Shown here: in pieces, positions 523-27,570 of the stretch
How the letters are laid out: every line of letters begins with the position of its first letter
How positions within the stretch are numbered: position 1 is the first letter of the stretch
Origin: Coprobacillaceae bacterium
GTDB lineage: Bacteria > Bacillota_I > Bacilli_A > Erysipelotrichales > Coprobacillaceae
Direction of reading: 5' to 3'
NCBI GenBank assembly: GCA_963675915.1
Contig: OY780959.1
Span: 240,001-272,000, forward strand
DNA length: 32,000 bases
The notes under the pieces: model-generated
What the model was told of the DNA's origin: nothing
Databases searched by the model: none
What the model saw: only the letters and a program-made list of their open reading frames with translations
Position numbers and translations under genes: made by a program

Positions 523-1527
523 ATGATTATCGTATTAAAATCAAAAGCAACAGCAGAAGACATTAAAATCGTCGAGGATATTGTCCGTTCAAAAGGATTG
601 ACACCTCACGTATCGACTGGTGATGAACAAACAATTATCGGACTGGTTGGGGATACGACCAAGATCGACCCGGAAACAATCGAAGTCAATCCAATTGTTG
701 AAAGAGTCATGCATGTATCGGTGCCATACAAACTGGCCAGCCGTCATTTCCATCCAGAAGACAGCATCATCGATGTTTCAGGTGTCAAAGTTGGTGGCGG
801 AAACTATGCTTACATTGCCGGACCATGTTCGGTTGAAAGTGAAGAACAGGTTATTGAAATCGCCAAAGCGGCCAAAGCTGCCGGAGCAAACATGCTTCGT
901 GGTGGGGCGTTCAAACCACGTACCAGCCCATACGCATTCCAAGGAATGGGATCAAAAGCATTGGATATTCTGGTTAAAGCCCGCGAGCTTACTGGACTTC
1001 CAATCGTAACTGAACTGATGGATGTCGACCATATTGAAGAATTCGAAGAAAAAGTGGATATGATCCAAATCGGAGCCCGCAACATGCAAAACTTCACTTT
1101 ATTAAAAGAAGTAGGGAAACGAACAACCAAACCGATCTTATTGAAAAGAGGTCTGGCTGCTACTTACCAAGAATGGATCATGTCAGCTGAATACATCATG
1201 GCCAGCGGGAACAAGAACGTCATCCTTTGTGAAAGAGGGATCCGTACTTTCGAAACTTATACAAGAAACACTTTGGATCTTCAGGCAATTCCAGTCCTGA
1301 GAAGAATGACTCACCTTCCAATCATCATCGATCCATCACATGCCGGAGGAAAATACTGGCTGGTTGAACCGATGGCTAAAGCGGCGATGATTACCGGGGC
1401 GGACGGATTGATGATCGAAGTCCACAATGATCCTGCTTGCGCACTTTGCGATGGAGCTCAATCATTGAAACCGGAAAAATTTGCGAGCCTGATGGAGAAA
1501 ATTAAAAAAATCGAAACGATTATGTAA
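523..1527 (+). CDS. aroF: 3-deoxy-7-phosphoheptulonate (DAHP) synthase, type I-beta, with N-terminal ferredoxin-like regulatory domain
   Basis: 334-aa ORF with AGGAGAG RBS. The KDO8P/DAHP-synthase barrel motifs are present (GPCSVES, LRGGAFKPRTSPY.FQG, KRG, IIDPSH). An extra ~65-aa N-terminal domain resembles Thermotoga-type enzymes. Confidence 0.9.
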   Translation: MIIVLKSKATAEDIKIVEDIVRSKGLTPHVSTGDEQTIIGLVGDTTKIDPETIEVNPIVERVMHVSVPYKLASRHFHPEDSIIDVSGVKVGGGNYAYIAGPCSVESEEQVIEIAKAAKAAGANMLRGGAFKPRTSPYAFQGMGSKALDILVKARELTGLPIVTELMDVDHIEEFEEKVDMIQIGARNMQNFTLLKEVGKRTTKPILLKRGLAATYQEWIMSAEYIMASGNKNVILCERGIRTFETYTRNTLDLQAIPVLRRMTHLPIIIDPSHAGGKYWLVEPMAKAAMITGADGLMIEVHNDPACALCDGAQSLKPEKFASLMEKIKKIETIM

Positions 1528-2349
1528 TCATTTCGATAGGATTTCAACTCCGGTAGGAGTTATCAAGATAGTATGTTCAAATTGGCAGGAAGGATAGCCG
1601 TCTTCGGTATAGACAGTCCAGTTATCGCCGGCGTCGACGAAAACTTCCTGAGAACCAAGATTGAGCATTGGTTCGATTGTAAAGACCATGCCGGGAATAA
1701 TAGTATAGGTCTTTTCGTTTGGTTTGAAATGGTACACGTAAGGGTCCTCGTGCAAAGCGAGCCCGACTCCATGTCCGGTGAATTCCCGAACCACGCTCAA
1801 ATCGTGTTCATGGGCGTATTTTTCAATCACGGCTCCGATGTCGCCAATCGTGGTTTCGTAAGGGACAATCGACTCGATGGCCAATTCCAGCGCCTCTTTG
1901 GTGTGGAATACCAGATCCTGGATGATTGGGTGAACCTCACCGATCATATAGGTTCGTGAAGCATCGCCGTAATAATCGTTGTACATGGTGGTGGCATCGA
2001 TATTGATGATATCGCCGTCTTGAAGAATATCCTCGCTGTTGGGAATACCGTGACATACCACATCGTTGAGCGATGTGCAGATGTGCTTTGGATACCCCAT
2101 GTACCCGAAGTCAGCGCACACGGCACCTTTTTCCCGGGTGAATTTTTCGGTCATCTCATCGATCTGCAAAGTCGAGATTCCGGCTTTGACATGGTCTTCC
2201 AAATAGTCCAACAATGCGGTGTTGATGTCGCATGCTTGGCGAATTCCTTCGATTTGTTCATTGTTTTTTATGATTTCAGGGGGCGGGATCAAGTGGCCGC
2301 TCGCTTCTAATTCTTTGATTTTTTCTAAGTCTACGAAGTCTGGATACAT
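1528..2349 (-). CDS. map: methionine aminopeptidase, type I
   Basis: 273-aa ORF with the metal-ligand context of MetAP (VCHGIP, DGDIINID, DASRT, FTGHGVG, FTIEP, FEHT). Confidence 0.95.
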   Translation of the reverse strand: MYPDFVDLEKIKELEASGHLIPPPEIIKNNEQIEGIRQACDINTALLDYLEDHVKAGISTLQIDEMTEKFTREKGAVCADFGYMGYPKHICTSLNDVVCHGIPNSEDILQDGDIINIDATTMYNDYYGDASRTYMIGEVHPIIQDLVFHTKEALELAIESIVPYETTIGDIGAVIEKYAHEHDLSVVREFTGHGVGLALHEDPYVYHFKPNEKTYTIIPGMVFTIEPMLNLGSQEVFVDAGDNWTVYTEDGYPSCQFEHTILITPTGVEILSK

Positions 2350-2485
2350 TGTAATTACCTCCGCTTCAATTATAACACAATCTGGGAAAATTCAATATTT
2401 ATTAGCTTAAAAATAATCTTTTTGGATTAAAAGCAAGACATCTTGAAAAAAACTGAAAAATTAGAATATAAATTGGAATATCTAC

Positions 2486-2513
2486 TTGAAATAACTTTGT
2501 AATAGTGTATAAT
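2486..2513 (+). promoter_or_regulatory. candidate rpsU promoter
   Basis: TTGAAA 2486-2491, 16-nt spacer, TATAAT 2508-2513. Confidence 0.5.
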
Positions 2514-2548
2514 GATAAAGAATTTAGAGTCGAAAGGGGGAAAGAAGA

Positions 2549-2731
2549 ATGGCAAAGACAGTTGTAAGAGATAACGAATCATTAGATGACGCTCTTAGAA
2601 GATTTAAAAGACAAGTTTCTAGAACTGGAACCCTTGCAGAAGCTCGTAAAAGAGAATTTTATGTAAAACCAGGTTTAAAAAGAAAATTAAAGTCTGAAGC
2701 AGCAAGAAAAAACAATAAGAAAAAAAGATAG
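2549..2731 (+). CDS. rpsU: 30S ribosomal protein S21
   Basis: 60-aa basic ORF ([12 protein letters not shown]...REFY.KPG..RK) with GGGGGAAAG RBS. Confidence 0.95.
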
Positions 2732-2756
2732 GCTCATGCAAATGAGTCTTTTTTTT
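2731..2756 (+). terminator. intrinsic terminator after rpsU
   Basis: GGCTCAT / ATGAGTC stem with a GCAA loop, followed by an 8-T run. Confidence 0.75.
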
Positions 2757-2827
2757 ATGCCATATTTCACGTGAAATGTTGCGTTAATCAGGGTGGTTTG
2801 ATAAAATGGAATAAATAAGGAGACTAT

Positions 2828-3784
2828 ATGAAAGATACTATTCAGATTACCGATTTCAGCATCGACAAGCTAAGTTTGCTTAGTGGTTCCAATGACAAGC
2901 ATTTCGAGATAATCGAAGATCAGCTTAGAGTCGAGATATCCCTGAGAGGTGATATGATCTCGATTTCCGGCAAGGATGAACACAGCATCAAGGAAGCCAA
3001 GGATGTCCTTGAAGCTCTGATTGGCTTGATCAAAAAAGGAATTCAGATTCATCGTCGTGACGTAATTTATGCTTTGCGTCTTGAAGACAAACAAAACCTG
3101 GAATCGATCGAGGAACTTTATAAGATTAAAATCGCCCGTACGATTACCGGGAAACTGATTTATCCCAAAACGTTTGGTCAGAAAGTCTATTATCAGGCCC
3201 TGAAAAACAACGATGTCGTTTTTGGGATTGGTCCTGCCGGTACCGGAAAGACCTATATGGCGGTGGTCATGGCGGTAACTGCGCTTAAAAACAATGAGGT
3301 TCAGCGAATTGTTCTGACTCGTCCGGCGGTTGAAGCCGGCGAATCACTTGGTTTCTTGCCGGGTGATCTTAAAGAGAAAGTTGATCCTTACTTGCGCCCG
3401 CTCTATGACGCGCTCTATGACATGCTTGGTTTGGAACAAACCGAGAAACTGATTGAAAAAGGAATCATTGAAATCGCACCTTTGGCCTACATGCGGGGGC
3501 GGACTCTTGAAGATGCTTATGTCATCCTCGATGAGGCCCAAAATACCACCAAGGCCCAGATGAAAATGTTTTTGACCCGGTTGGGGTTCAACTCCAAAAT
3601 GATTGTCACCGGTGATGTTTCACAAATCGATCTTCCTTGGGGAGTCGACTCTGGGCTAAGACAGGCATCGAAGATTCTCAAGGGGATCAAAGGAATAAAA
3701 TTCGTGTATCTCAGCCCGATGGATGTGGTTCGTCATCCGGTCGTTCAAAAGATCATCGAAAGTTACGACAAAATCGAAGAGTAA
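2828..3784 (+). CDS. phoH: PhoH-like ATPase
   Basis: 318 aa. Walker A GPAGTGKTY, Walker B ILDEAQN, and conserved LTRPAVEAGE.LGFLPG and GD.SQIDLP motifs. Confidence 0.9.
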   Translation: MKDTIQITDFSIDKLSLLSGSNDKHFEIIEDQLRVEISLRGDMISISGKDEHSIKEAKDVLEALIGLIKKGIQIHRRDVIYALRLEDKQNLESIEELYKIKIARTITGKLIYPKTFGQKVYYQALKNNDVVFGIGPAGTGKTYMAVVMAVTALKNNEVQRIVLTRPAVEAGESLGFLPGDLKEKVDPYLRPLYDALYDMLGLEQTEKLIEKGIIEIAPLAYMRGRTLEDAYVILDEAQNTTKAQMKMFLTRLGFNSKMIVTGDVSQIDLPWGVDSGLRQASKILKGIKGIKFVYLSPMDVVRHPVVQKIIESYDKIEE

Positions 3785-5397: not shown

Positions 5398-6165
5398 ATG
5401 TCGAGATATGAAAAATATCGCAGTTTGCGTGAAGGCATCAAAGAGCTTAATGCCGAAAAGAAAACAGATAATGAAGTAGTTGTGGAAGCGTCACAATCCC
5501 AACAGGATGACTTCCTGGATTTTCTGGGAGAAAAGAGCGAATCAACTGTCAAAACCGAACCGAATGAAGATACTCTGGAAGTGGCCAAAACTTTCAAAGA
5601 TATTAAAAATGAAAAAGATCCGGACGTTGACCGGGCAATCCAGTCAGCCAAAAAATCATTGGGTGAATCGGAAAGTACCCGAATCAATATCCTGAACAAA
5701 ATAAAAAATCCAACTGTTGAAAAAGTAGTGGTTGATGCGGATGAAAAATATCAGACCGCTGATTTCAGCGCCGGGATGTTCATTCATCCAACCAAAGGCA
5801 AAATATCGGAACACGAACCGGAAATGGCTGTGGCTGAAGTTGAGGAAGTCAAATTGGATGATGAAATCGAAACTAAAAAAACCGGTGAATCAAAACGGGC
5901 TAAGACCCTGATGGAACGCCTTGAAGAAATTACAAAGGAACAGGAACAGGAAATGCCGGCAGCCAAAGGGGAAAAAAGCGAGGTTAAGGCAGCAAATGTC
6001 CCTGAATTTGGGGAAGACACCATGGAAATCGTCGCTGGTGATCTTGACTATGATAATGAATTTGTCGAAAATGGCAAAGGAGCATTGATATTGAATGTGA
6101 TTATTGGTATTCTATTAGTTGTGTTTGTTGCGCTGTGTGTTTACATAGCGATACAGTTAATATAG
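5398..6165 (+). CDS. hypothetical acidic protein with a single C-terminal transmembrane helix (tail-anchored)
   Basis: 255-aa ORF with GGGGAG RBS. Long E/D/K-rich low-complexity body and a hydrophobic C-terminus ALILNVIIGILLVVFVALCVYIAIQLI. No recognisable family. Confidence 0.6.
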   Translation: MSRYEKYRSLREGIKELNAEKKTDNEVVVEASQSQQDDFLDFLGEKSESTVKTEPNEDTLEVAKTFKDIKNEKDPDVDRAIQSAKKSLGESESTRINILNKIKNPTVEKVVVDADEKYQTADFSAGMFIHPTKGKISEHEPEMAVAEVEEVKLDDEIETKKTGESKRAKTLMERLEEITKEQEQEMPAAKGEKSEVKAANVPEFGEDTMEIVAGDLDYDNEFVENGKGALILNVIIGILLVVFVALCVYIAIQLI

Positions 6166-9983: not shown

Positions 9984-10304
9984 GTGCGACAGGCAGTCGC
10001 TTAGATGCCATGTATACAGGTACATGGCATTTTCCTTTTATAAATGAGTTCCTGTAATAGTTAGCTATCAATACAGTAAATATCATGGAATAGGGAAACC
10101 CCGTAGGTACAAATCCTACCCCGTGCGCACTGGTGCTATTCGGGAAATCTAGTCTAGGGCATAATCGTGAGATTGTGTTTGAAGGAGACGCAGTAGTCGA
10201 GAGACCTGTAGATGAGTTGGCAGGCCGAAACTAAAAGTGAATCACATGTTGCGGCAGTGGAGAATGTGACGACGTTGCGAAAGGTGCGGAAGTCTATTCA
10301 CGAC

Positions 10305-10310
10305 ATATTC
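10305..10310. repeat. target-site duplication, left copy (ATATTC)
   Basis: ATATTC is present once in the uninterrupted paralogous site (25609-25614) and twice here, flanking the insertion. It is 7 bp if the ambiguous T at 10311 is counted. Confidence 0.85.
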
Positions 10311-10331
10311 TGTCGCTAGCCAGTTTATATG
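10311..10331. repeat. left terminal inverted repeat
   Basis: TGTCGCTAGCCAGTTTATATG compared with the reverse complement of the right end, TGTAGCTAGTCAATTTATTTG. About 17 of 21-22 positions match by eye. Confidence 0.75.
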
Positions 10332-10519
10332 GTAAGTATTTCTAGGATTTTATGCAAATTAAATAGAGGCCATTGCCAATTAATTTGAATGTTTATTCTT
10401 CAAATTAGTTGAACCTGACCTCTTTTTTTGTTACCTTGTTGATAAATATTCCATAGAAAGAAAAAAACGAGAGACCCAACCTGCAAGTAGTTTCTCTCGT
10501 TTGCCATATAGACAAACGT

Positions 10520-11074
10520 ATGATAACTTATCACAACGATAAAATCAAGAGTAAATTACTCGAAATCGATTCCGAATCAAAGCTCCAAGCTTTTTATAAC
10601 GAAGCTGTAAATGATATTAACCGTTACGCCATCGGTTGTGTCAACTCATGCAATGGTAATCACATCATTCATGGTTATTATAACCGAAGGGTAAAACTGC
10701 CTTTTGGCTTTTTCAGGTTGCGGATAATGCGGCTAAGATGCAAGGATTGCGGTAGAACCCATGCAATTCTTCTTTCATGTTTGGTTCCATATTCAAGTAT
10801 CCCGTTGGCTGTTCAAGTTGAGATTTCCATACATAAAAATAATCAGAAACTATTAAAAGCCATTCTTGATCGAAATCCCTATATGTCTGAGTGTGAAATT
10901 TATAATGTTGTGAGCAGGTATATCAATTTTTGGCAGCAACGTTTGATGTCATTGAGAATTGAATCAAATGATATTAACCGTCTTGTTGAAAGCTGTTTTT
11001 CAAATTATTTGATGCAGTTCATGCAATGTAGAAATACCATAAATATCCTGTATACAATCAACCACATAGGATGA
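10520..11074 (+). CDS. Cys-rich (putative zinc-ribbon) protein of unknown function, first gene of the transposon
   Basis: 184-aa ORF. CVNSC...H then a basic stretch and CKDCGRTH, suggesting a 4-Cys zinc ribbon. From memory it resembles DUF6431-type proteins seen next to transposases. RBS is weak. Confidence 0.6.
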   Translation: MITYHNDKIKSKLLEIDSESKLQAFYNEAVNDINRYAIGCVNSCNGNHIIHGYYNRRVKLPFGFFRLRIMRLRCKDCGRTHAILLSCLVPYSSIPLAVQVEISIHKNNQKLLKAILDRNPYMSECEIYNVVSRYINFWQQRLMSLRIESNDINRLVESCFSNYLMQFMQCRNTINILYTINHIG

Positions 11075-11122
11075 GTTAAATAATCGATTCTATTAGTATA
11101 TAGTGGGTGACGGAGGTATTAT

Positions 11123-12370
11123 ATGGATAAAAAAGAACAAGAATACGTAGCGTTGATGCGCCATCGGATCATTCATGACATCATTACCGGAAATTATGAT
11201 GCTGCATGGTCTAAGAATCAGGCGATTACGGAAGCTACCAAGAAAGTCTATAAGAGTTTCGACAACCGTGATTTCACTGTCTCAAGCAGTACCATCTCCA
11301 GATGGATTGCTGCTTACGAAGAAAAAGGCTTCGATGGATTGATTCCTCAAAAGCGAAGTGATTGTGGCAAGTCAAGAAGACTGGATGATGACATCGTTGA
11401 AACAATCAAATATTATAAGACAACCTATCCTAGATTGCCGGCAACTGTAATATACGGCAAGTTGATTGAGAAAGGAATCATCAAGAAAACTGATGTTTCC
11501 CTATCAACCGTTAACCGATGTGTCAATCAGATAAAGTCGGAATTGCGGCTTTCAAACAAGAAAGACATGCGTCGCTACGAAGTGCCCCATATCAATATGA
11601 ACTGGGCTGGCGACAGTTCGGTCGGCCCTTACATAACCATTAATGGCAAGAAGAACCGGACATACATGATTGCCCTGATCGATGATGCTTCAAGGATGAT
11701 CGTCCATCTTGATTTGTATTTGAATGACAACACAGTCAATTTGATGGATACCATGAAAAGTGCGGTAACAAAATATGGAGTTCCTGAGATGTTCAGGTTT
11801 GACAACGGCTCCAATTATCGAAATCACCAGATCAAGATGATTGCAGCAAGGATTAATTCAACCATTAGCTACTGCAAACCGTACTCGCCGGAAGGAAAAT
11901 CAAAAATTGAGCGGGTGTTTCGGACGATCAAAGATCAGTTCTTCGCCCAAATAAACATAAAAGATTACACAAACAATCTAGAAGGTTTGAAGCAGGATTT
12001 AAGCCAGTTCATCAATGATTACAACAACAAGGTGCATTCGTCTTTGAATGGATTGACACCTCATCAACGTTTTTTTCAGGAAAGCAACCTTATCAAAAGG
12101 CTTGATGATGACTTTATCGACAACACTTTCCTGTTCGAAGTAGAGCGGTCTGTCAGTACTGATTCGGTAATCAAAATAGATAATCGGGAATACGAGATTG
12201 ATTATATCTATTCTGGTGAAAGGCATATGTTCCGATATACTCCGGACTTGGAAAACGTCTATATAGTCAACAAGAATACCGGCGAACTGGAACGGATTCA
12301 CCTACTTGATAAAAACGCCAATTCAAAAGTAAAACGAGTGCAGCCAAAATTATGCGGAGGAGAAGATTAA
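11123..12370 (+). CDS. DDE transposase, retroviral-integrase (rve) fold with Mu-transposase-like C-terminal domain (TniA/TnsB/MuA-like)
   Basis: 415 aa with GGAGG RBS. N-terminal HTH region (STISRWIAAYEEKGFDGLIPQKRSD.G.SR). Catalytic contexts WAGDS, FDNGSNY and KIER, with 35 residues between the second D and the E. C-terminal beta-barrel-like VIKIDNREYE...FRYTPDL. Confidence 0.85.
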   Translation: MDKKEQEYVALMRHRIIHDIITGNYDAAWSKNQAITEATKKVYKSFDNRDFTVSSSTISRWIAAYEEKGFDGLIPQKRSDCGKSRRLDDDIVETIKYYKTTYPRLPATVIYGKLIEKGIIKKTDVSLSTVNRCVNQIKSELRLSNKKDMRRYEVPHINMNWAGDSSVGPYITINGKKNRTYMIALIDDASRMIVHLDLYLNDNTVNLMDTMKSAVTKYGVPEMFRFDNGSNYRNHQIKMIAARINSTISYCKPYSPEGKSKIERVFRTIKDQFFAQINIKDYTNNLEGLKQDLSQFINDYNNKVHSSLNGLTPHQRFFQESNLIKRLDDDFIDNTFLFEVERSVSTDSVIKIDNREYEIDYIYSGERHMFRYTPDLENVYIVNKNTGELERIHLLDKNANSKVKRVQPKLCGGED

Positions 12371-13173
12371 TGGAAAAATATTGGACCAGATATGGATTGG
12401 AATTCAATCCGTTTATCAAGAACTCAAAGAATTTATTTATTGAAACAAGTGAATACCAGGAATTGAAAGTACGCCTTAACAGCCTTTTTGAAATCAAGGG
12501 TTTCGGACTAATAGTCGGTGAACCCGGCCATGGCAAAACAACCATGATCAGAAACTATATCAAAACACTCCCCAAATCAGCTTACAAGATAATTTATTTG
12601 TCAATGTCGACCCTTACAGTCAAGGAGTTCTATATGCAACTAGCTGAGTCGCTGGATCTGACTCCTCGGTATCGAAAGAATGATCTGTTCAGGGAGATCC
12701 AATCAGCCATAAACCAGTTGATTTACGAAAAAAGGATTACCCCGGTGTTTATCTTTGATGAATGTAATTACATGAATAACGCCATTCTTAATGATTTGAA
12801 GATGATCTTCAATTTTGATATGGATTCCAAGGATCATGCTGTAGTCTTGATGGTCGGATTGCCGACAATAACAAGGAACCTGAAATTAACCGCTCATGAA
12901 CCATTGCGCCAGCGAATGATTATCAATTACAAACTTGAGCCATTGAACAAGAGTGAAAGTCTTGCTTATATCAAAGACAAGCTCCAAGGCGGAAAAACAA
13001 TTCAAGAAGTGTTCAATGATAATGCAATTGAGGCAATCATCAATGCATCCAACGGCACCTGTCGGGTTATTGATCGGATATGTGACCGGGCAATGTTTAT
13101 CGGAGCAATCAGAAAAATCGAAGTAATTGATTCCGATTTAATCCTAGAAACAATCGAAGAGGTAGTAATTTGA
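12370..13173 (+). CDS. AAA+ ATPase, TniB/ExeA (AAA_22)-like transposition partner
   Basis: Likely start is ATG 12370, overlapping the transposase TAA by 1 nt (TAATG), with GGAGGAG RBS. The N-terminal YGL.FNPF motif resembles ExeA-like ATPases. Walker A GEPGHGKTT, Walker B VFIFDECN. The track ORF from 12352 is probably over-extended. Confidence 0.85.
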   Translation: MEKYWTRYGLEFNPFIKNSKNLFIETSEYQELKVRLNSLFEIKGFGLIVGEPGHGKTTMIRNYIKTLPKSAYKIIYLSMSTLTVKEFYMQLAESLDLTPRYRKNDLFREIQSAINQLIYEKRITPVFIFDECNYMNNAILNDLKMIFNFDMDSKDHAVVLMVGLPTITRNLKLTAHEPLRQRMIINYKLEPLNKSESLAYIKDKLQGGKTIQEVFNDNAIEAIINASNGTCRVIDRICDRAMFIGAIRKIEVIDSDLILETIEEVVI

Positions 13174-13478
13174 TAATCGAATACTTCTGCAACTATGATG
13201 AAAAAACATGGGCCAACGAGATAGTAATAGTCTCACAAAACCCAGATAAGTGTGAATTCCAGCTAAGATATGACGGAAATGAAATCGAAGTGATAGTAGG
13301 TAAATCAGCCAAAGGGAACTGGATTTGCATCCCGTTGATGAAGCTGGGACTGGAACTATCATATTTCAAAGACAAATTTTGGAACAAGTCAGCTCTATTG
13401 CGCGAGATAGATCCAATCAGCAGCGAAGCAATATCACAAGCAATCTACAAAATAAACGAGTCAGGGATAATCGTCTAA
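13170..13478 (+). CDS. small hypothetical protein, last gene of the transposon
   Basis: 102-aa ORF. The TTG start overlaps the ATPase TGA (TTTGA) and is preceded by GAAGAGG. No recognisable motif. Confidence 0.5.
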   Translation: MIIEYFCNYDEKTWANEIVIVSQNPDKCEFQLRYDGNEIEVIVGKSAKGNWICIPLMKLGLELSYFKDKFWNKSALLREIDPISSEAISQAIYKINESGIIV

Positions 13479-13604
13479 AAAGGCGATTATTTTCTTTTTC
13501 CTCTAAAACATCATTTCAAATAAACTGAATATTCCATTCGATTAATTTGAAGAGCATCAAAAAAGGGCCAAAAGAAGGTCCATATAATTTGAAGAATCAT
13601 CCAT

Positions 13605-13625
13605 CAAATAAATTGACTAGCTACA
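13605..13625. repeat. right terminal inverted repeat
   Basis: CAAATAAATTGACTAGCTACA is the reverse complement partner of 10311-10331. Confidence 0.75.
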
Positions 13626-13631
13626 ATATTC
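13626..13631. repeat. target-site duplication, right copy (ATATTC)
   Basis: Same hexamer as 10305-10310. Intron sequence resumes exactly here. Confidence 0.85.
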
Positions 13632-13948
13632 TAAGAACCAGTCGAATATGCCGGCACTCCATTGTGAAGGTGATTGGCATGTCAACAAGGGCGTAGTTGA
13701 TGACCCTGTGAGACCTCTTCATCCACCGAAAGGATAATCATCTATAAGAGTCATTCGAAGTGATGGTTATATGAAGAGGAGTCAGACAATCTCATAGTAG
13801 TGAAGTAGTCATGCGACCAAACGTTTGGCGAAGCAAAGGGGATTGACCTTTTACAATTCTTACTTTGTTTAATCGTAATGGTAAGAATGACGGTACTTAG
13901 GTACAAACGAATTCAAAGAACGATAAATAGAAAGAGAGGTTTGAAATT

Positions 13949-15373
13949 ATGAATGAACCGTTGAAATTGAAGTGGCATTCTCTGTATGGACAAATACTCC
14001 AGGACAGGAAAATACTAGAAGCATGGAAGCAGGTAAAAGCAAATCATGGAAGTGGCGGAATCGATGGGGTAACCATTGAACGCTTCATGGAAAATGAACA
14101 AGACAATCTGGACAAGCTACTGGAAGAACTGAGATTAAAGGAATATAGACCAATCCCTGTAAGGCGAGTATATATCCCTAAGAAAAACGGAAAGAGAAGA
14201 CCATTGGGAATACCAATAGTCAAAGATCGGATAGTTCAGCAGGTGCTAACCAATATCCTAACCCCAAAATATGAGGCCGGTATATTCCATCACTGGTCAG
14301 TTGGCTACCGCCCGAATCGTGGTGTCGACAGTGCCATGCAGATTATCATCAAGAACATCGAGGAAGGAAGAAACTGGATATACGATTGTGATATCAAAGG
14401 GTTCTTCGATAACATTCCCCATAAAAAGTTGATGAAGGTATTGAATAAATGCATCGCTGATGGGACTGTTCTTGATTTGATTTGGTCATGGCTCAAAGCG
14501 GGATACATGGAAGACGGCAAACATATGCAAAGCAAAAGTGGAACACCGCAAGGTGGCGTTATTTCACCGCTACTTGCAAACATCTACCTGAACGAACTGG
14601 ATTGGAAGTTGCACGAGGCAAAGATTCACTTCGTGCGTTATGCCGATGATTTTCTCTTGTTTGCGAAAACAGAAGAAGAAATTGAGAGGGCAGGAAAGAT
14701 AGCCAGAGAGGTGATTCAATCATTGGGATTGGAAATGGCTATGGACAAAACCAAAGTGGTGGACTTTAAAAATGATGATTTTACATTTCTTGGATTTGAC
14801 TTCAAACACTGGAGGAAAAACAAGAAAGGTGAAGACTACTATTTCATAGTTCCCACCGCCAAGTCGCTCAAAGACTTCAAAAAGAAAATCAAGGATAAGA
14901 CGCAAAGAAAGTGGACATTTTCTCAGGATAAATGGGTAAGCATGCTTAACCCGATTATAGTCGGAAAAGTCAATTATTACCTGAATGTCTACAAAGCACT
15001 GGAAATATTCAAGAAGCACAATTACAAAACCCGGTGTAATATCAAGATAATGGGATGGAAGCTCAATAAAATTGATCAGTATATCCGGCATAGATTGCGG
15101 ATGTGCATGTTGCATAAACACCCGACAATCAGGAGGGCATCTGGAATGAATGTGAAATGGAATCTCAAATTCTTCGCACTGATAGGTTTGAAACCGGCAA
15201 ATTGGTATTATTTCAATGTTATGTATGACTATCCGATTGAAATTTATGTCCAAAATCAACAGAGCAAAAATAGAACTCGCGCAAAGAAAAATGCCGAAAG
15301 CGACAGAAAATTGGGAACTAAAAGATACACAAAACAAAAATTCACAAAAATAGCCTACTCTTTTAGCAAGTAG
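13949..15373 (+). CDS. group II intron reverse transcriptase/maturase (RT plus X domain, no En domain)
   Basis: 474 aa. RPLGIPIVKDRIVQQ, GYRPNR, TPQGGVISPLLANIYL, RYADDF, and a maturase region with VNYY. Confidence 0.9.
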   Translation: MNEPLKLKWHSLYGQILQDRKILEAWKQVKANHGSGGIDGVTIERFMENEQDNLDKLLEELRLKEYRPIPVRRVYIPKKNGKRRPLGIPIVKDRIVQQVLTNILTPKYEAGIFHHWSVGYRPNRGVDSAMQIIIKNIEEGRNWIYDCDIKGFFDNIPHKKLMKVLNKCIADGTVLDLIWSWLKAGYMEDGKHMQSKSGTPQGGVISPLLANIYLNELDWKLHEAKIHFVRYADDFLLFAKTEEEIERAGKIAREVIQSLGLEMAMDKTKVVDFKNDDFTFLGFDFKHWRKNKKGEDYYFIVPTAKSLKDFKKKIKDKTQRKWTFSQDKWVSMLNPIIVGKVNYYLNVYKALEIFKKHNYKTRCNIKIMGWKLNKIDQYIRHRLRMCMLHKHPTIRRASGMNVKWNLKFFALIGLKPANWYYFNVMYDYPIEIYVQNQQSKNRTRAKKNAESDRKLGTKRYTKQKFTKIAYSFSK

Positions 15374-15411
15374 ACTATAATCATTCATAAAATCAGATTT
15401 AGTAAATTGGT

Positions 15412-15444
15412 AAGCCGTATGCGTTAATAGCGCATGTGCGGTTT
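15412..15444 (+). ncRNA. group II intron domain V (copy A)
   Basis: AAGCCGTATGCG...CGCATGTGCGGTTT. AGC triad, 2-nt bulge on the 3' arm, followed by a domain VI hairpin. Confidence 0.8.
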
Positions 15445-15673
15445 GATAAGGGGCTAGCTTAGAAATAAGTTAGCCTACTTTATTTGAGCGCTCCAAGACC
15501 AATCCCGATATTTGCCGGGTTTTGGAGCCTTGGTGGTGAAAACCATCCACTTCGTCCCACCAAAAAAAGCCCTGTTAATGGTGATAATTGGAGTTTTGGA
15601 CTCTAAAAAAGCAAAGATAGGGGACAGATAAGGTGAAAAAACCGTTTTTTTACACTAAGGTACCGGTATTTGC

Positions 15674-22380: not shown

Positions 22381-22905
22381 GGTATGCCGGGCATGGCATA
22401 TATCTAGGTGGTGAAAGTCCACTGTGGGGGTGACGTCGCAACTGCCAACCACTAGCCAATATCAAGGGTGTCCATCGTGAGGTGGAATCTGAAAGAAGAT
22501 GGAGGCAAAACCCTGGTCCGAGGTACACAAATCACATATCAGGCAGGTAATGGGGACGAGCGTGCCAAACAACGCGAAGTCATAAGAGGTTGCGGAATAC
22601 AACTATTACATGTAAATGTGGCGGATATATGGGGTGAAAGAGATATGACCTTATCCCGGGAGATCTTGCGAGGGAGCAATCCTAGTAACAACGAATCGCA
22701 AGAAGTCAGCAGACGTCGTAGTAGCGAAGAAGTGGCTGTAATGGCCATGGAGTGAAGGACTGAATGAATCTATCAGTTATTAAAATTAGGCTTGATTTCA
22801 TCATGCGAAACCGCAAAGACAGACGAACACACTATCAAGGCCCGAAAGAAGAATTTAGGGGAAGTGAGCCTGATGAATAGCGAAATCAATGGAGGTAACG
22901 GAAAT

Positions 22906-24189
22906 ATGAATACTGATAACACATTACTTGAAGAAATGCTTAGTGATATCAATCTCAAAAAGGCATATACCCAAGTAAAACGAAACAAAGGCGCTAGTGG
23001 CGTTGATGGAATGAAAGTATTGGACCTCAAAGGATATCTGGATGAACATCTTGATGAAATAAAGGAAACGATACAAATCAGGAAATACAAACCACAGCCT
23101 GTGCTAAGAGTGGAAATACCGAAACCAGATGGTGGAGTTAGAAATCTAGGAATACCAACAGTAGTTGACCGATTTGTCCAACAGGCCATCGCCCAGGTAT
23201 TGATTCCTATCTATGAACCCTTGTTCAGCGATAACAGTTACGGTTTTAGACCTAATAGAAATTGTGAGATGGCAATCGTCAAAGCATTGGAATACATGAA
23301 TGATGGTTTCCAATGGATTGTCGACATTGACTTGGAGAAATTCTTTGATAACATCAACCACGATAAATTGATTACCTTAATCATGAAAGATGTCAAGAAT
23401 GGTGAAATTGTATCACTGATAAGAAAATTCCTGGTAAGTGGAATAAGCATTGATGGAGAATACAAAGAGTCAATAATCGGATCAAGCCAAGGAGGGCCGT
23501 TGAGTCCATTGTTGAGTAATATCGTCCTTAACGAACTCGACAAAGAATTGGAGGCTAGAGGGTTGCATTTTACTAGGTACGCTGATGACTGCATGATATT
23601 TGTCGGTAGCAGTAAAGCTGCAGATAGAGTTATGGAGAATGTGCGAAAGTTCATTGAAAAGAAGTTGGGGCTCAAGGTCAACATGACCAAAAGCAAAGTA
23701 TCCAAACCAAATGATATCAAATACTTGGGATTTGGATTCTATTATGACAACTTCAGCCAGTCATGGAAAGCCAAACCACATGCTAAATCAATAGCTATCT
23801 TGAAAGATAAGCTCAGAGAACTGACTAATAGAAGTTGGTCAGTATCATGGGAATTTCGCCGAATGAAAATAAGGCAACTTATTGTCGGGTGGATCAATTA
23901 CTACCGAATCGGAAATTTCAAATCCAAATGTGCAAGGCTGGATGGCTGGATTAGATTTAGAATCCGAATGTACCTGTGGAAGAAATGGAAAACCATCAAG
24001 AACCGTAGAAAACAGTTGAGAAAACTAGGGGCCCAAAGATGGCAATATGAATCATGGTCAAATTCCAGGAAATCATATGCCCGCTGTGCAAGCACGTTTC
24101 TGCGAACCAAAATAACAAACAAAGTACTCAAAAGAAATGGTCTAGCATCACTGCTAGACCAATATCAGTTAAAACATATTTTAGTATAG
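22906..24189 (+). CDS. group II intron reverse transcriptase/maturase (RT plus X, no En domain)
   Basis: The best start is ATG 22906, with GGAGG 10 nt upstream. Track starts at 22792 and an ATG at 22873 are in frame but lie in ribozyme sequence. Motifs: NLGIPTVVDRFVQQA, GFRPNR, SQGGPLSPLLSNIVL, RYADDC, WINYYR. Confidence 0.85.
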   Translation: MNTDNTLLEEMLSDINLKKAYTQVKRNKGASGVDGMKVLDLKGYLDEHLDEIKETIQIRKYKPQPVLRVEIPKPDGGVRNLGIPTVVDRFVQQAIAQVLIPIYEPLFSDNSYGFRPNRNCEMAIVKALEYMNDGFQWIVDIDLEKFFDNINHDKLITLIMKDVKNGEIVSLIRKFLVSGISIDGEYKESIIGSSQGGPLSPLLSNIVLNELDKELEARGLHFTRYADDCMIFVGSSKAADRVMENVRKFIEKKLGLKVNMTKSKVSKPNDIKYLGFGFYYDNFSQSWKAKPHAKSIAILKDKLRELTNRSWSVSWEFRRMKIRQLIVGWINYYRIGNFKSKCARLDGWIRFRIRMYLWKKWKTIKNRRKQLRKLGAQRWQYESWSNSRKSYARCASTFLRTKITNKVLKRNGLASLLDQYQLKHILV

Positions 24190-24195
24190 ATTTAA

Positions 24196-24227
24196 ACCGC
24201 CGTATGCCGGACGGCACGTACGGTGGT
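24196..24227 (+). ncRNA. group II intron domain V (copy B)
   Basis: ACCGCCGTATGCC ggac GGCA(cg)TACGGTGGT. Canonical 2-nt bulge, with CGC in place of AGC. Confidence 0.75.
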
Positions 24228-24369
24228 GTGAGAGGTCGGAAATAAAATTTTATTTATTTCCTCCTACTCGATTCTTTGGGGCGGTGAACGAAAATGGCTC
24301 GGTAATGCATAATTGTCTTTATAAAATAATTGCTTTTTGGTATTATTTAGCAAAAGAGAGGGATATGAT

Positions 24370-25263: not shown

Positions 25264-25287
25264 GGGTTGTCTTGTGACAATCCTTTT
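25264..25287 (+). terminator. intrinsic terminator after the EamA gene; homing site of intron copy C
   Basis: GGGTTGTC ttgt GACAATCC (25264-25283) then TTTT (25284-25287). Intron GTGCG starts at 25288. Confidence 0.7.
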
Positions 25288-25931
25288 GTGCGACAGGCAG
25301 TCGCTTAGATGCCATGTATACAGGTACATGGCATTTTCCTTTTATAAATGAGTTCCTGTAATAGTTAGCTATCAATACAGTAAATATCATGGAATAGGGA
25401 AACCCCGTAGGTACAAATCCTACCCCGTGCGCACTGGTGCTATTCGGGAAATCTAGTCTAGGGCATAATCGTGAGATTGTGTTTGAAGGAGACGCAGTAG
25501 TCGAGAGACCTGTAGATGAGTTGGCAGGCCGAAACGAAAAGTGAATCATATGTTGCGGCAGTGGAGAATGTGACGACGTTGCGAAAGGTGCGGAAGTCTA
25601 TTCACGACATATTCTAAGAACCAGTCGAATATGCCGGCACTCCATTGTGAAGGTGATTGGCATGTCAACAAGGGCGTAGTTGATGACCCTGTGAGACCTC
25701 TTCATCCACCGAAAGGATAATCATCTATAAGAGTCATTCGAAGTGATGGTTATATGAAGAGGAGTCAGACAATCTCATAGTAGTGAAGTAGTCATGCGAC
25801 CAAACGTTTGGCGAAGCGAAGGGGATTGACCTTTTACAATTCTTACTTTGTTTAATCGTAATGGTAAGAATGACGGTACTTAGGTACAAACGAATTCAAA
25901 GAACGATAAATAGAAAGAGAGGTTTGAAATT

Positions 25932-27356
25932 ATGAATGAACCGTTGAAATTGAAGTGGCATTCTCTGTATGGACAAATACTCCAGGACAGGAAAATACTA
26001 GAAGCATGGAAGCAGGTAAAAGCAAATCATGGAAGTGGAGGGATTGATGGGGTAACCATTGAACGCTTCATGGAAAATGAACAAGACAATTTGGACAAGC
26101 TACTGGAAGAACTGAGATTAAAGGAATATAGACCAATCCCTGTAAGGCGAGTATATATCCCTAAGAAAAACGGAAAGAGAAGACCATTGGGAATACCAAT
26201 AGTCAAAGATCGGATAGTTCAGCAGGTGCTAACCAATATCCTAACCCCAAAATATGAGGCCGGTATATTCCATCACTGGTCAGTTGGCTACCGCCCGAAT
26301 CGTGGTGTCGACAGTGCCATGCAGATTATCATCAAGAACATCGAGGAAGGAAGAAACTGGATATACGATTGTGATATCAAAGGGTTCTTCGATAACATTC
26401 CCCATAAAAAGTTGATGAAGGTATTGAATAAATGCATCGCTGATGGGACTGTTCTTGATTTGATTTGGTCATGGCTCAAAGCGGGATACATGGAAGACGG
26501 TAAACATATGCAAAGCAAAAGTGGAACACCGCAAGGTGGCGTTATTTCACCTCTACTTGCAAACATCTACCTGAACGAACTGGATTGGAAGTTGCACGAG
26601 GCAAAGATTCACTTCGTGCGTTATGCCGATGATTTTCTCTTGTTTGCGAAAACAGAAGAAGAAATTGAGCGGGCAGGAAAGATAGCCAGAGAAGTGATTC
26701 AATCATTGGGATTGGAAATGGCTATGGACAAAACCAAAGTGGTAGACTTTAAAAATGATGATTTTACCTTTCTTGGATTTGACTTCAAACACTGGAGGAA
26801 AAACAAGAAAGGTGAAGACTACTATTTCATAGTTCCCACCGCCAATTCACTCAAAGACTTCAAAAAGAAAATCAAGGACAAGACGCAAAGAAAGTGGACA
26901 TTTTCTCAGGATAAATGGGTAAGCATGCTTAATCCGATTATAGTTGGTAAAGTCAATTACTACCTGAACGTCTACAAAGCACTTAAAATATTCAAGAAGC
27001 ACAACTACAAAACCCATTGCGACATAAATCTAATGGGAAGGGAACTAAATACAATTGACAAGTATATTCGCCAAAGGCTGAGAATGTGCATGCTGCATAA
27101 ACATCCGACAATCAGGAAAGCGTTTGGAATGACGGTTAAATGGAATATAGCATTCTTTGCGATGATTGGTTTGAAACCGGCATACTGGCACTATTTCAAT
27201 ACCATGTATGGATATCCAATTGAAATATATGTTCAAAGACAACAGGGTATCAACAAAGAAGTAACGAAAAACAGAGTGGAACAGTGCAGGAAAGCCGGAA
27301 TCAAGTATTACACGAAAGAAAGAAACAAGAAAATAGCCTACTCTTTTAGCAAGTAG
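25932..27356 (+). CDS. group II intron reverse transcriptase/maturase (paralog of 13949-15373)
   Basis: 474 aa. The first ~300 aa are identical to copy A. The last ~170 aa are strongly diverged, at equal length. Confidence 0.9.
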   Translation: MNEPLKLKWHSLYGQILQDRKILEAWKQVKANHGSGGIDGVTIERFMENEQDNLDKLLEELRLKEYRPIPVRRVYIPKKNGKRRPLGIPIVKDRIVQQVLTNILTPKYEAGIFHHWSVGYRPNRGVDSAMQIIIKNIEEGRNWIYDCDIKGFFDNIPHKKLMKVLNKCIADGTVLDLIWSWLKAGYMEDGKHMQSKSGTPQGGVISPLLANIYLNELDWKLHEAKIHFVRYADDFLLFAKTEEEIERAGKIAREVIQSLGLEMAMDKTKVVDFKNDDFTFLGFDFKHWRKNKKGEDYYFIVPTANSLKDFKKKIKDKTQRKWTFSQDKWVSMLNPIIVGKVNYYLNVYKALKIFKKHNYKTHCDINLMGRELNTIDKYIRQRLRMCMLHKHPTIRKAFGMTVKWNIAFFAMIGLKPAYWHYFNTMYGYPIEIYVQRQQGINKEVTKNRVEQCRKAGIKYYTKERNKKIAYSFSK

Positions 27357-27394
27357 ACTATAATCATTCATAAAATCAGATTTAGTAAATTGGT

Positions 27395-27427
27395 AAGCCG
27401 TATGCGTTAATAGCGCATGTGCGGTTT
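27395..27427 (+). ncRNA. group II intron domain V (copy C)
   Basis: Identical to 15412-15444. Confidence 0.8.
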
Positions 27428-27570
27428 GATAAGGGGCTAGCTTAGAAATAAGTTAGCCTACTTTATTTTGTCTTTTTGGGTATTTTGGCGGATGTTACGG
27501 TAACGTAATTTTTATGCTTGTAAATACAATCGAATTATAAAATATGGTATAATGAATCAAGGTGATGCAA

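Follow-up and report, generated by a model that had tools for sequence, protein, structure and literature searches.

The inserted element and its boundaries

We have analysed a 32,000-nucleotide (nt) stretch of DNA from a Coprobacillaceae bacterium (GenBank assembly GCA_963675915.1, contig OY780959.1, positions 240,001 to 272,000), referred to here as the window. Inside one of two paralogous group II introns in the window there is a 3315-bp insert, running from 10311 to 13625, that is filled by four open reading frames (ORFs) on the same strand. Their order in the operon is DUF6431 (DUF, domain of unknown function), DDE transposase, AAA_22 ATPase and DUF6618. We consider it highly probable that this is an autonomous transposon that has recently been active, one of a large, unnamed family of 3.0 to 3.5-kb elements in the Bacillota, of which the closest characterised relative is Tn552. 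The element had been noticed earlier from the letters of the DNA alone (the sequence-only reading), as a compact transposon with a core enzyme pair flanked by two unknown ORFs. The four ORFs are as follows.

10520 to 11074, plus strand: ORF1, DUF6431 protein, 184 amino acids (aa)
11123 to 12370, plus strand: ORF2, DDE transposase, 415 aa
12370 to 13173, plus strand: ORF3, AAA_22 ATPase, 267 aa, starting at the ATG within the TAATG that overlaps the ORF2 stop (12368 to 12372)
13170 to 13478, plus strand: ORF4, DUF6618 protein, 102 aa, with a TTG start overlapping the TGA stop of ORF3 (TTGA)

The limits of the insert are defined by the uninterrupted intron. On alignment of the window with itself by BLAST, 9979 to 10311 matches 25283 to 25615 with 99.4% identity, and 13626 to 15485 matches 25609 to 27468 with 94% identity. 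The two alignments share 7 nt (ATATTCT) of the uninterrupted copy, and therefore the insert is exactly 10311 to 13625. This bears out to the nucleotide the boundaries placed by the sequence-only reading from the empty site at 25609 to 25614. The insertion lies 327 nt from the 5' end of the interrupted intron, ahead of its reverse transcriptase (RT)/maturase ORF at 13949 to 15373 and domains V and VI at 15410 to 15483.

9984 to 15485, plus strand: interrupted group II intron (Rfam Intron_gpII; Pfam RVT_1 and GIIM; intron start sequence)
25288 to 27468, plus strand: uninterrupted paralogous intron, source of the empty site (self-BLAST and intron start sequence)
10305 to 10310, no strand: left copy of the target-site duplication, ATATTC, present once at the paralogous empty site
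13626 to 13631, no strand: right copy of the target-site duplication, ATATTC (self-BLAST and sequence)

A second copy of the element, L111 (ENA contig ERZ21878193:ctg6212l), is 99.85% identical, encodes an identical transposase and is embedded in unrelated DNA. Its flanks read CTTAAT-TGT...ACA-CTTAATa, so that it possesses its own 6-bp duplication, differing from the ATATTC of the window. This has two consequences. The near-identity of two elements located at different sites with different duplications indicates recent transposition, and of the 6 or 7 bp allowed by the sequence-only reading the duplication is 6 bp and not 7. Among the relatives we find 12 independent insertions with perfect 6-bp duplications; one more has 7 bp, or 6 bp plus a chance match.

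The transposase and its ATPase partner

The ORF2 protein had been read as a DDE enzyme with a helix-turn-helix (HTH) N-terminus and a D..D-35-E motif, and this is confirmed. Pfam rve, HTH_32, HTH_28 and HTH_29 are matched, and the family alignment shows no variation at D164, D227 and E263, the last two of which are separated by 35 residues. The predicted architecture comprises an HTH N-terminus, an RNase H-like core and a Mu-type C-terminal β-barrel region; Pfam Mu-transpos_C and Mu-transpos_C_2 are matched by relatives of ORF2. In PHROGs the protein corresponds over residues 5 to 386 to PHROG 310, Mu-type transposase (1e-51). The nearest solved structures found by a sequence search of the PDB are TnsB (5e-6) and IS5376 IstA (6e-5), and PADLOC gives a weak TnsB V-K match.

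ORF3 is matched by Pfam AAA_22 (72.8 bits, 4e-20) and by PHROG 296, 'DNA transposition protein' (4.5e-25). The Walker A (GEPGHGKTT) and Walker B (FDECN) motifs and the TAATG overlap with ORF2 are as first described, but counted from the ATG of that overlap the protein has 267 aa rather than 268. The nearest solved structures, both weak, are RuvB and MuB. Its score against TniB (PF05621) is 19.4 bits, below the cut-off of 22.4, and there is no match to Pfam IstB_IS21 at E<0.1. By sequence the protein is assigned to the AAA_22/ExeA/MuB/TniB type of AAA+ ATPase. The PHROG assignments of the two enzymes, and the profile comparison that follows, agree with the Mu/TniA-type logic proposed initially.

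A profile built from 13 transposases of the family aligns with the transposase of a Tn552-like element of B. cereus over 358 columns (hhalign, probability 99.7%, E 2e-26). The alignment extends from the N-terminus through the β-barrel, with 26% identity by BLASTP. The corresponding alignment to IS21 IstA has a probability of 92% and E 5e-7. ORF3 aligns with the ATPase of the Tn552-like element at full length (residues 19 to 268, 23% identity, E 2e-7). Tn552 itself likewise duplicates 6 bp, and its proteins include p480, p271 and the Bin resolvase (PMC3276174); this agrees with the closeness in duplication length that the sequence-only reading had suggested. On the basis of the profile and ATPase alignments, the 6-bp duplication and the gene set, the closest characterised system is Tn552, and not IS21, Tn5053 or Tn7.

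The likeness to Tn552 thus comprises a p480-type transposase homologous over about 360 residues (N-terminal motif, DDE core and β-barrel), a p271-type AAA_22 ATPase encoded directly downstream by an overlapping gene, and the length of the duplication (ATATTC in the window, CTTAAT in L111, and the 12 relatives; PMC3276174). There are also clear differences. The element has no serine resolvase (BinL) or res site, and the DUF6431 gene sits where the Tn552-like element of B. cereus has its resolvase gene. Its terminal repeats are about 24 bp long, with subterminal repeats, compared with about 120 bp in Tn552. It carries no cargo, DUF6618 is optional in the family, and no preference for res sites is seen. 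The sequence-only reading had noted no resolvase, TnsA-like endonuclease or recognisable TniQ-length target selector, and Pfam and NCBIfam scans of the ORFs of the element likewise detect none of these domains; nor is a resolvase gene present among the called genes or annotation of the related elements that we examined. Two longer antisense ORFs of the element match no family.

Other systems that pair a DDE enzyme with an ATPase are more distant. With the A and B proteins of Mu the element shares its best PHROG matches, the weak PDB match to MuB, TG...CA ends with several internal binding sites (putative in the element) and low target specificity. However, the element is no phage, it duplicates 6 bp where Mu duplicates 5 bp, and its transposase has 415 aa compared with 663 aa. 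The same enzyme and ATPase logic, with the weak TnsB and TniB matches, relates it to the Tn5053/Tn402 and Tn7-like elements, but those too duplicate 5 bp. In comparison with Tn5053/Tn402 there is no TniQ or TniR resolvase match and TniB falls below its cut-off; in comparison with the Tn7-like elements, including the CRISPR-associated transposons, there is no TnsA or TniQ/TnsD, and no attachment site or guide.

If the element were an ordinary member of the IS21 or IS481 families of insertion sequence (IS) carrying two passenger genes, the best NCBIfam match of ORF2 to transpos_IS481 (170.6 bits), followed by IS3, ISNCY and IS21 (65.8 bits), would be explained. IS21 is likewise compact, with a DDE enzyme that has a β-barrel, an AAA+ helper that is obligatory, repeated end motifs and no resolvase (PMC11208146, PMC10122671). 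Yet both scores fall short of their curated cut-offs (224 for IS481 and 160 for IS21), and no NCBIfam IS model passes its cut-off with ORF2. IstB belongs to a DnaC-like clade (PF01695) whereas the ATPase of the element is AAA_22, the relationship to IstA is far more distant than that to the Tn552-like transposase, and IS21 has no third or fourth gene. IS481 elements have a single gene in place of three or four. In every genome seen the family proteins bear generic PGAP names, so that neither the NCBIfam IS models nor PGAP naming places the element in a named family. We regard membership of IS21 or IS481 as very unlikely.

A large family of mobile elements

The element is no one-off, but belongs to a very large family. 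There are 2219 database relatives of ORF2 at E<=1e-10; the best 120 clusters all have about 414 aa and at least 49% identity. Many of the contigs encoding them are 3.0 to 3.4 kb in length, as expected of collapsed repeats, and a metagenome scan found relatives encoded in 525 stretches. The family is found in gut and soil Firmicutes. Clostridium butyricum (C. butyricum) GCA_013149575.1 has at least seven copies and Helicovermis profundi six, in each case with the same transposase and co-linear ends. Whole-element DNA searches of plasmid and phage collections found nothing, and a scan of viral contigs with ORF2 found no relative.

The only mention of the family that we found in the literature is a preprint on Clostridium sp. 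JS66, which describes 15 copies of an unnamed 'DUF6431 / DDE / AAA ATPase three-gene cassette', two of which bound a 63-kb deletion that arose during laboratory evolution (bioRxiv 10.64898/2026.08.16.744336). The megatransposon of T. kivui is unrelated and uses an IS1182-like element.

Rearrangements are associated with some copies. In C. butyricum two copies on contig 1 (L002, 419912 to 429159; L003, 1066220 to 1075467) are in opposite orientation with swapped flanking hexamers, attgac...cgttat and cgttat...attgac. This would fit either an inversion of about 650 kb by homologous recombination or intramolecular replicative transposition. In Helicovermis profundi (AP028654.1, about 1.82 to 1.84 Mb) two inverted copies (L013 and L014) lie tail to tail about 2.5 kb apart, with intron fragments and an IS3 between them. 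A perfect duplication (ACATAC) flanks the first of these copies or the second, but not both, the remaining copy having none (CTCCGT / CAAACA). The arrangement argues against strong target immunity and points to local rearrangement. L111 has itself been invaded by a 2441-bp IS66-family element at 855 to 3295, in its left non-coding end, with duplication of about 9 bp (10377 to 10385 of the window), and a second, inverted IS66 copy lies 0.56 kb past its right end.

The ends of the element

The TGT and ACA termini were correctly identified in the sequence-only reading, but the inverted repeats given there as about 21 bp extend to about 24 bp. They are imperfect: the left end is TGTCGCTAGCCAGTTTATATGGTA and the right end, reverse-complemented, is TGTAGCTAGTCAATTTATTTGATG, with 18 of 24 positions identical. 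The terminal motif TGTWGA..GCCA/GTCAAATTA is found again in four relatives (L001, L010, L032 and L057). Beyond the 24-bp repeat the two ends have in common only short subterminal motifs.

10311 to 10334, plus strand: left terminal inverted repeat TGTCGCTAGCCAGTTTATATGGTA, 18/24 matching the reverse complement of the right end
10350 to 10361, plus strand: left subterminal repeat TTATGCAAATTA, a weaker copy with 2 mismatches
10396 to 10407, plus strand: left subterminal repeat TTCTTCAAATTA (motif enrichment and conservation)
13543 to 13554, minus strand: right subterminal repeat CTCTTCAAATTA (motif enrichment and conservation)
13585 to 13596, minus strand: right subterminal repeat TTCTTCAAATTA (motif enrichment and conservation)
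13602 to 13625, minus strand: right terminal inverted repeat ...CATCAAATAAATTGACTAGCTACA, identical to the right end of L001

The subterminal motif occurs five times in the window, compared with 0.81 expected, and four of the five are inside the element. The copies have the same orientation relative to each terminus, and are kept in L001, L010 and L111 at matching distances from the tips. They are probable binding sites for the transposase; several subterminal binding sites are typical of the ends of Mu, Tn7 and IS21. Within the 3' end of ORF1 (10996 to 11014), TTTTTCAAATTATTTGATG joins the subterminal motif to a near-perfect copy of the right-terminal TCAATTTATTTGATG. It is kept in L001 and L111 and also codes for the conserved SNYL.QFMQ motif, and may reflect either constraint on the protein or a candidate internal binding site for the transposase upstream of ORF2.

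A C. butyricum subfamily (L002 to L009, L018 and L019) has TAT...ATA ends (TATAGAATAGCA...TGCTATTCAATA), without the usual terminal CA. Its members still duplicate 6 bp (7 bp in L006). On abutting the two ends of the window element by eye, TTGACT is present in the right end 8 nt from the tip, and no suitably spaced -10 sequence was found in the left end that would complete a junction promoter. Promoters of this kind are a feature of IS21 and IS3 circles.

Expression and selection of the four genes

GGAGG precedes both ORF2 and ORF3, and ORF1 has no obvious Shine-Dalgarno sequence. Two hairpins frame the genes.

10465 to 10502, plus strand: hairpin with a 10-bp stem, 18 nt upstream of the ORF1 start, that reads as an intrinsic terminator on the minus strand
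13464 to 13493, plus strand: terminator-like hairpin across the ORF4 stop (terminator scan: 13-pair stem, then CTTTTTCC)

The upstream hairpin has a folding energy of -15.5 kcal/mol (z-score -3.7) and a T-run after the stem on the minus strand, and in L001 and L022 a C-G pair of the stem is replaced by U-A, a compensatory change that preserves it. The hairpin may shield the operon from transcription entering from outside, or have the role of an operator. The downstream hairpin probably closes the operon.

Purifying selection acts on all four genes. Compared with L001 and L022, the ratios of nonsynonymous to synonymous divergence (dN/dS) are 0.17–0.23 for ORF1, 0.03–0.04 for ORF2, 0.01–0.02 for ORF3 and 0.07–0.10 for ORF4. 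Divergence from L001, a copy in a metagenome-assembled genome of the Coprobacillaceae, is a mosaic (window 10311 to 11074 against L001 5190 to 5952). The first ~50 bp of the left end cannot be aligned by BLAST and ORF1 is 71% identical with a synonymous divergence (dS) of 0.80; ORF2 to ORF4 are 94–99% identical with dS 0.36–0.58, and at the right end no difference is seen over the terminal ~27 bp. Either exchange or faster evolution of the left module may explain this.

The DUF6431 protein

The two flanking ORFs had been described as unknown. They are indeed uncharacterised, but both belong to Pfam families. ORF1 matches DUF6431 with 32.5 bits (E 8e-8), passing the gathering threshold of 26.6 bits. 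Across 12 homologues the invariant residues are C40, Y54, R56, R71, C74, C77, T80, P90 and Y91. In the window protein C40, C44, C74 and C77 form a CX3C...CX2C motif, probably a zinc ribbon, and the C-terminal half is helical. There is weak resemblance (NCBIfam, 14–22 bits) to the N-terminal regions of the ISH6, ISL3 and ISKra4 transposases. PDB-sequence profile searches with DUF6431 and DUF6618 found nothing, and DUF6431 has only two incidental mentions in the literature that we searched.

Gene neighbours were counted by scanning all fetched loci with hidden Markov models (HMMs) built from alignments. A DUF6431 ORF is present just upstream of the transposase in all 92 loci with enough upstream sequence, and a DUF6618 ORF just downstream of the ATPase in 19 of the 76 with enough downstream sequence, both being counts to which one genome may contribute several copies, the loci thus lacking phylogenetic independence. 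From its fixed position in 92/92 loci, DUF6431 is not a passenger. The two accessory proteins had been put forward jointly as candidates for target selection and for the handling of cointegrates; they are not equivalent, DUF6431 being universal and DUF6618 optional. In all close copies of the window element both flanking ORFs are retained.

ORF1 is the fastest-evolving gene of the element, 5 to 10 times faster than the enzymes. Together with its location in the slot of the resolvase gene, this fits a role for DUF6431 as a regulator or a low-specificity adaptor. We suggest with due caution that it is probably a DNA-binding third component, either a regulator binding the operon or the ends, or an adaptor to the target of low specificity.

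One possibility is that DUF6431 is purely a transcriptional repressor of the operon and is not involved in the transposition reaction itself. Its gene comes first, lacks the obvious ribosome-binding site that the enzyme genes have and lies directly downstream of the conserved hairpin, and its rapid evolution is in keeping with such a role. The resolvase that holds this slot in Tn3-type and Tn552-type elements doubles as a repressor. Nothing speaks directly against this. However, universal retention over deep divergence is equally expected of a structural subunit, and similar zinc-ribbon modules are the DNA-binding N-termini of other transposases. We hold the repressor as a tentative explanation only.

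We give about the same limited credence to a more radical proposal, that DUF6431 is an obligatory third subunit of a minimal MuA/MuB-type machine, with its zinc ribbon in the resolvase/TniQ slot, and that DUF6618 is a regulator of the ATPase with a new fold. DUF6431 would then direct the ATPase to targets, or permit simple insertions with neither resolvase nor TnsA, and lineages would gain or lose DUF6618 to tune target choice or immunity.

The DUF6618 protein

ORF4 matches DUF6618 with 31.5 bits (2e-7; gathering threshold 27 bits). DUF6618 is matched by 112 cluster representatives at E<=1e-3, with the conserved motif G..GN..CIP...G.ELS...D.FWN. Longer proteins containing DUF6618 have no extra Pfam domain, and two long repetitive proteins that matched ORF4 (P0129 and P0138) were set aside as low-complexity artefacts. 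No paper on DUF6618 was found in the literature searched. An AlphaFold2 model of ORF4 (AF2; 51-sequence alignment) is confident, with a predicted local distance difference test (pLDDT) of 95.9, and comprises a six-stranded antiparallel sheet followed by two helices.

The four-gene order is kept in plasmids of C. estertheticum and C. tagluense, where the transposase is 34% and DUF6618 27–30% identical to those of the window. Four-gene elements occur in at least eight separate transposase lineages in a neighbour-joining tree, including the deepest. This scattered distribution fits either repeated loss of an ancestral gene or a module that is readily exchanged. In C. butyricum and Helicovermis the three-gene elements, at 3042–3045 bp, have no room for ORF4 and are multicopy, and therefore ORF4 is not required for movement across the family.

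On Sporosarcina plasmid pSporoP37 (L016, transposase 32% identical) a coupled 85-aa ORF at 5550 to 5807 occupies the position of ORF4. It matches neither DUF6618 nor any other Pfam family, and may be a diverged or replaced fourth gene. The DUF6431 ORF of the same element, at 2833 to 3366, is unannotated in the record.

DUF6618 could alternatively be cargo lying outside the transposition machinery, for example a small protein that is host-directed or counters defence systems. Three quarters of the loci lack it, among them multicopy and apparently recently active relatives, and it resembles no transposition protein in sequence and has no fold match in the PDB or among viral predicted structures. 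PADLOC made no assignment to a defence system. Yet cargo normally varies in identity and position, and in the 19 loci, with transposases from 34% to 97% identical, DUF6618 always follows directly after the ATPase. Its start overlaps the ATPase stop in the close clade, and it recurs in those separate lineages down to the deepest. We think it unlikely that DUF6618 is cargo. Translationally coupled to the ATPase, it may tentatively be regarded as a probable, dispensable modulator of that protein.

Host introns and the choice of target

Comparison of related copies had been proposed as a route to both target preference and the co-conservation of the flanking genes. It delivered the second, fully for DUF6431 and in part for DUF6618, but not the first: a logo of 13 insertion sites, including the 12 with perfect 6-bp duplications, gives no consensus.

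The surroundings of the copies raise the question of whether the element selects group II introns, or mobile DNA generally. Intron sequence holds or adjoins the window copy and four of the six Helicovermis copies, of which two lie 23 bp apart in paralogous introns and in the same orientation. L001 is inserted within another transposase gene, and several C. butyricum copies lie among IS elements. The points of insertion are not homologous, however. We examined and rejected a common structural position, as the window insertion is at +327 nt from the intron start and those in Helicovermis at +48 and +71, and the sites do not align. One insertion lies in the RT ORF in the opposite orientation, and other copies are in ordinary genes or intergenic DNA. 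Moreover, other IS elements occupy introns too (IS3 in L013 and L014), and insertions into dispensable DNA preferentially survive. Such survival accounts for the pattern at least as well as targeting, and we consider selection of introns or mobile DNA improbable.

Genes for serine or tyrosine recombinases are found within 0.5–2.5 kb of five copies (L003, L004, L008, L009 and L027). Res sites are targeted by Tn552 and Tn5053, and the proximity may reflect either res-type targeting or residence in mobile islands.

The window contains three group II introns (9984 to 15485, 22471 to 24272 and 25288 to 27468), the first and third being the paralogues. These two each begin GTGCG directly after a terminator-like hairpin plus T-run; inserting in this way is the habit of class C introns in bacteria. 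Identity between the two is 99.4% over the 5' 333 bp but falls to 94% over the other 1.86 kb, a difference suggestive of gene conversion or a mosaic history. The intron lying between them is of another class (Rfam group-II-D1D4-3 and D1D4-1). Elsewhere in the window, a T-box leader at 245 to 473 (Rfam, 128 bits) lies upstream of an ORF at 523 to 1527 and is unrelated to the element.

A possible mechanism of transposition

Following the paradigm of Mu, Tn7 and IS21 (PMC11208146), the transposase would bind the terminal and subterminal repeats through its HTH domains, pair the ends, and transfer the 3' CA ends into the target at positions 6 bp apart. The ATPase in its ATP-bound form would coat or mark the target DNA, and would recruit and activate the transposase by way of the β-barrel/C-terminal region. 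DUF6431 may act as the DNA-binding third component and DUF6618 may modulate the ATPase. Since there is no resolvase and no TnsA, simple insertions must arise otherwise. The host might recombine or repair a Mu-like strand-transfer intermediate, or there might be a donor pathway like that of IS21 or IS3.

Several points weigh against this interpretation of the element. The ORF2 of the window does not itself reach Pfam Mu-transpos_C, and relatives alone do so. The confident ORF4 model has no significant fold match (best E 0.13 in the PDB), and the best hit among viral predicted structures, an uncharacterised phage protein (E 0.04, TM score 0.52), is not significant. The ORF1 model, built from four close sequences, is unusable (pLDDT 52). 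The roles suggested for ORF1 and ORF4 are drawn from position, conservation and weak domain similarity (14–22 bits), and the mechanism from the paradigm of other systems. The family is unnamed as judged by NCBIfam cut-offs and PGAP names, and it may already possess a name. We nevertheless consider a recently active, Tn552-related transposon of a widespread family to be the most satisfactory description of the insert.

Implications

Transposons with a DDE enzyme and a dedicated AAA+ protein (Mu, Tn7 and its CRISPR-associated forms, IS21 and Tn552) are the main models for controlled choice of target, and the basis of programmable DNA-insertion tools. The family described here is abundant and small (3.0–3.5 kb), with 6 to 15 copies in some genomes, and none of the known solutions to second-strand cleavage, cointegrate resolution or target selection is present in it. 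In their place there is always one uncharacterised protein with a predicted zinc ribbon, and sometimes a second with an unmatched fold. The elements carry only generic names in annotation, and both accessory families exist in Pfam only as DUFs. If DUF6431 were an obligatory subunit, the family would represent a new multi-subunit system for transposition, very compact at 3 kb and separate from Tn552, IS21 and Tn7.

These elements drive rearrangements in industrial and gut Clostridia, as in the 63-kb deletion of JS66 and the inversions between copies in C. butyricum. The roles of DUF6431 and DUF6618 would show how a minimal system completes transposition.

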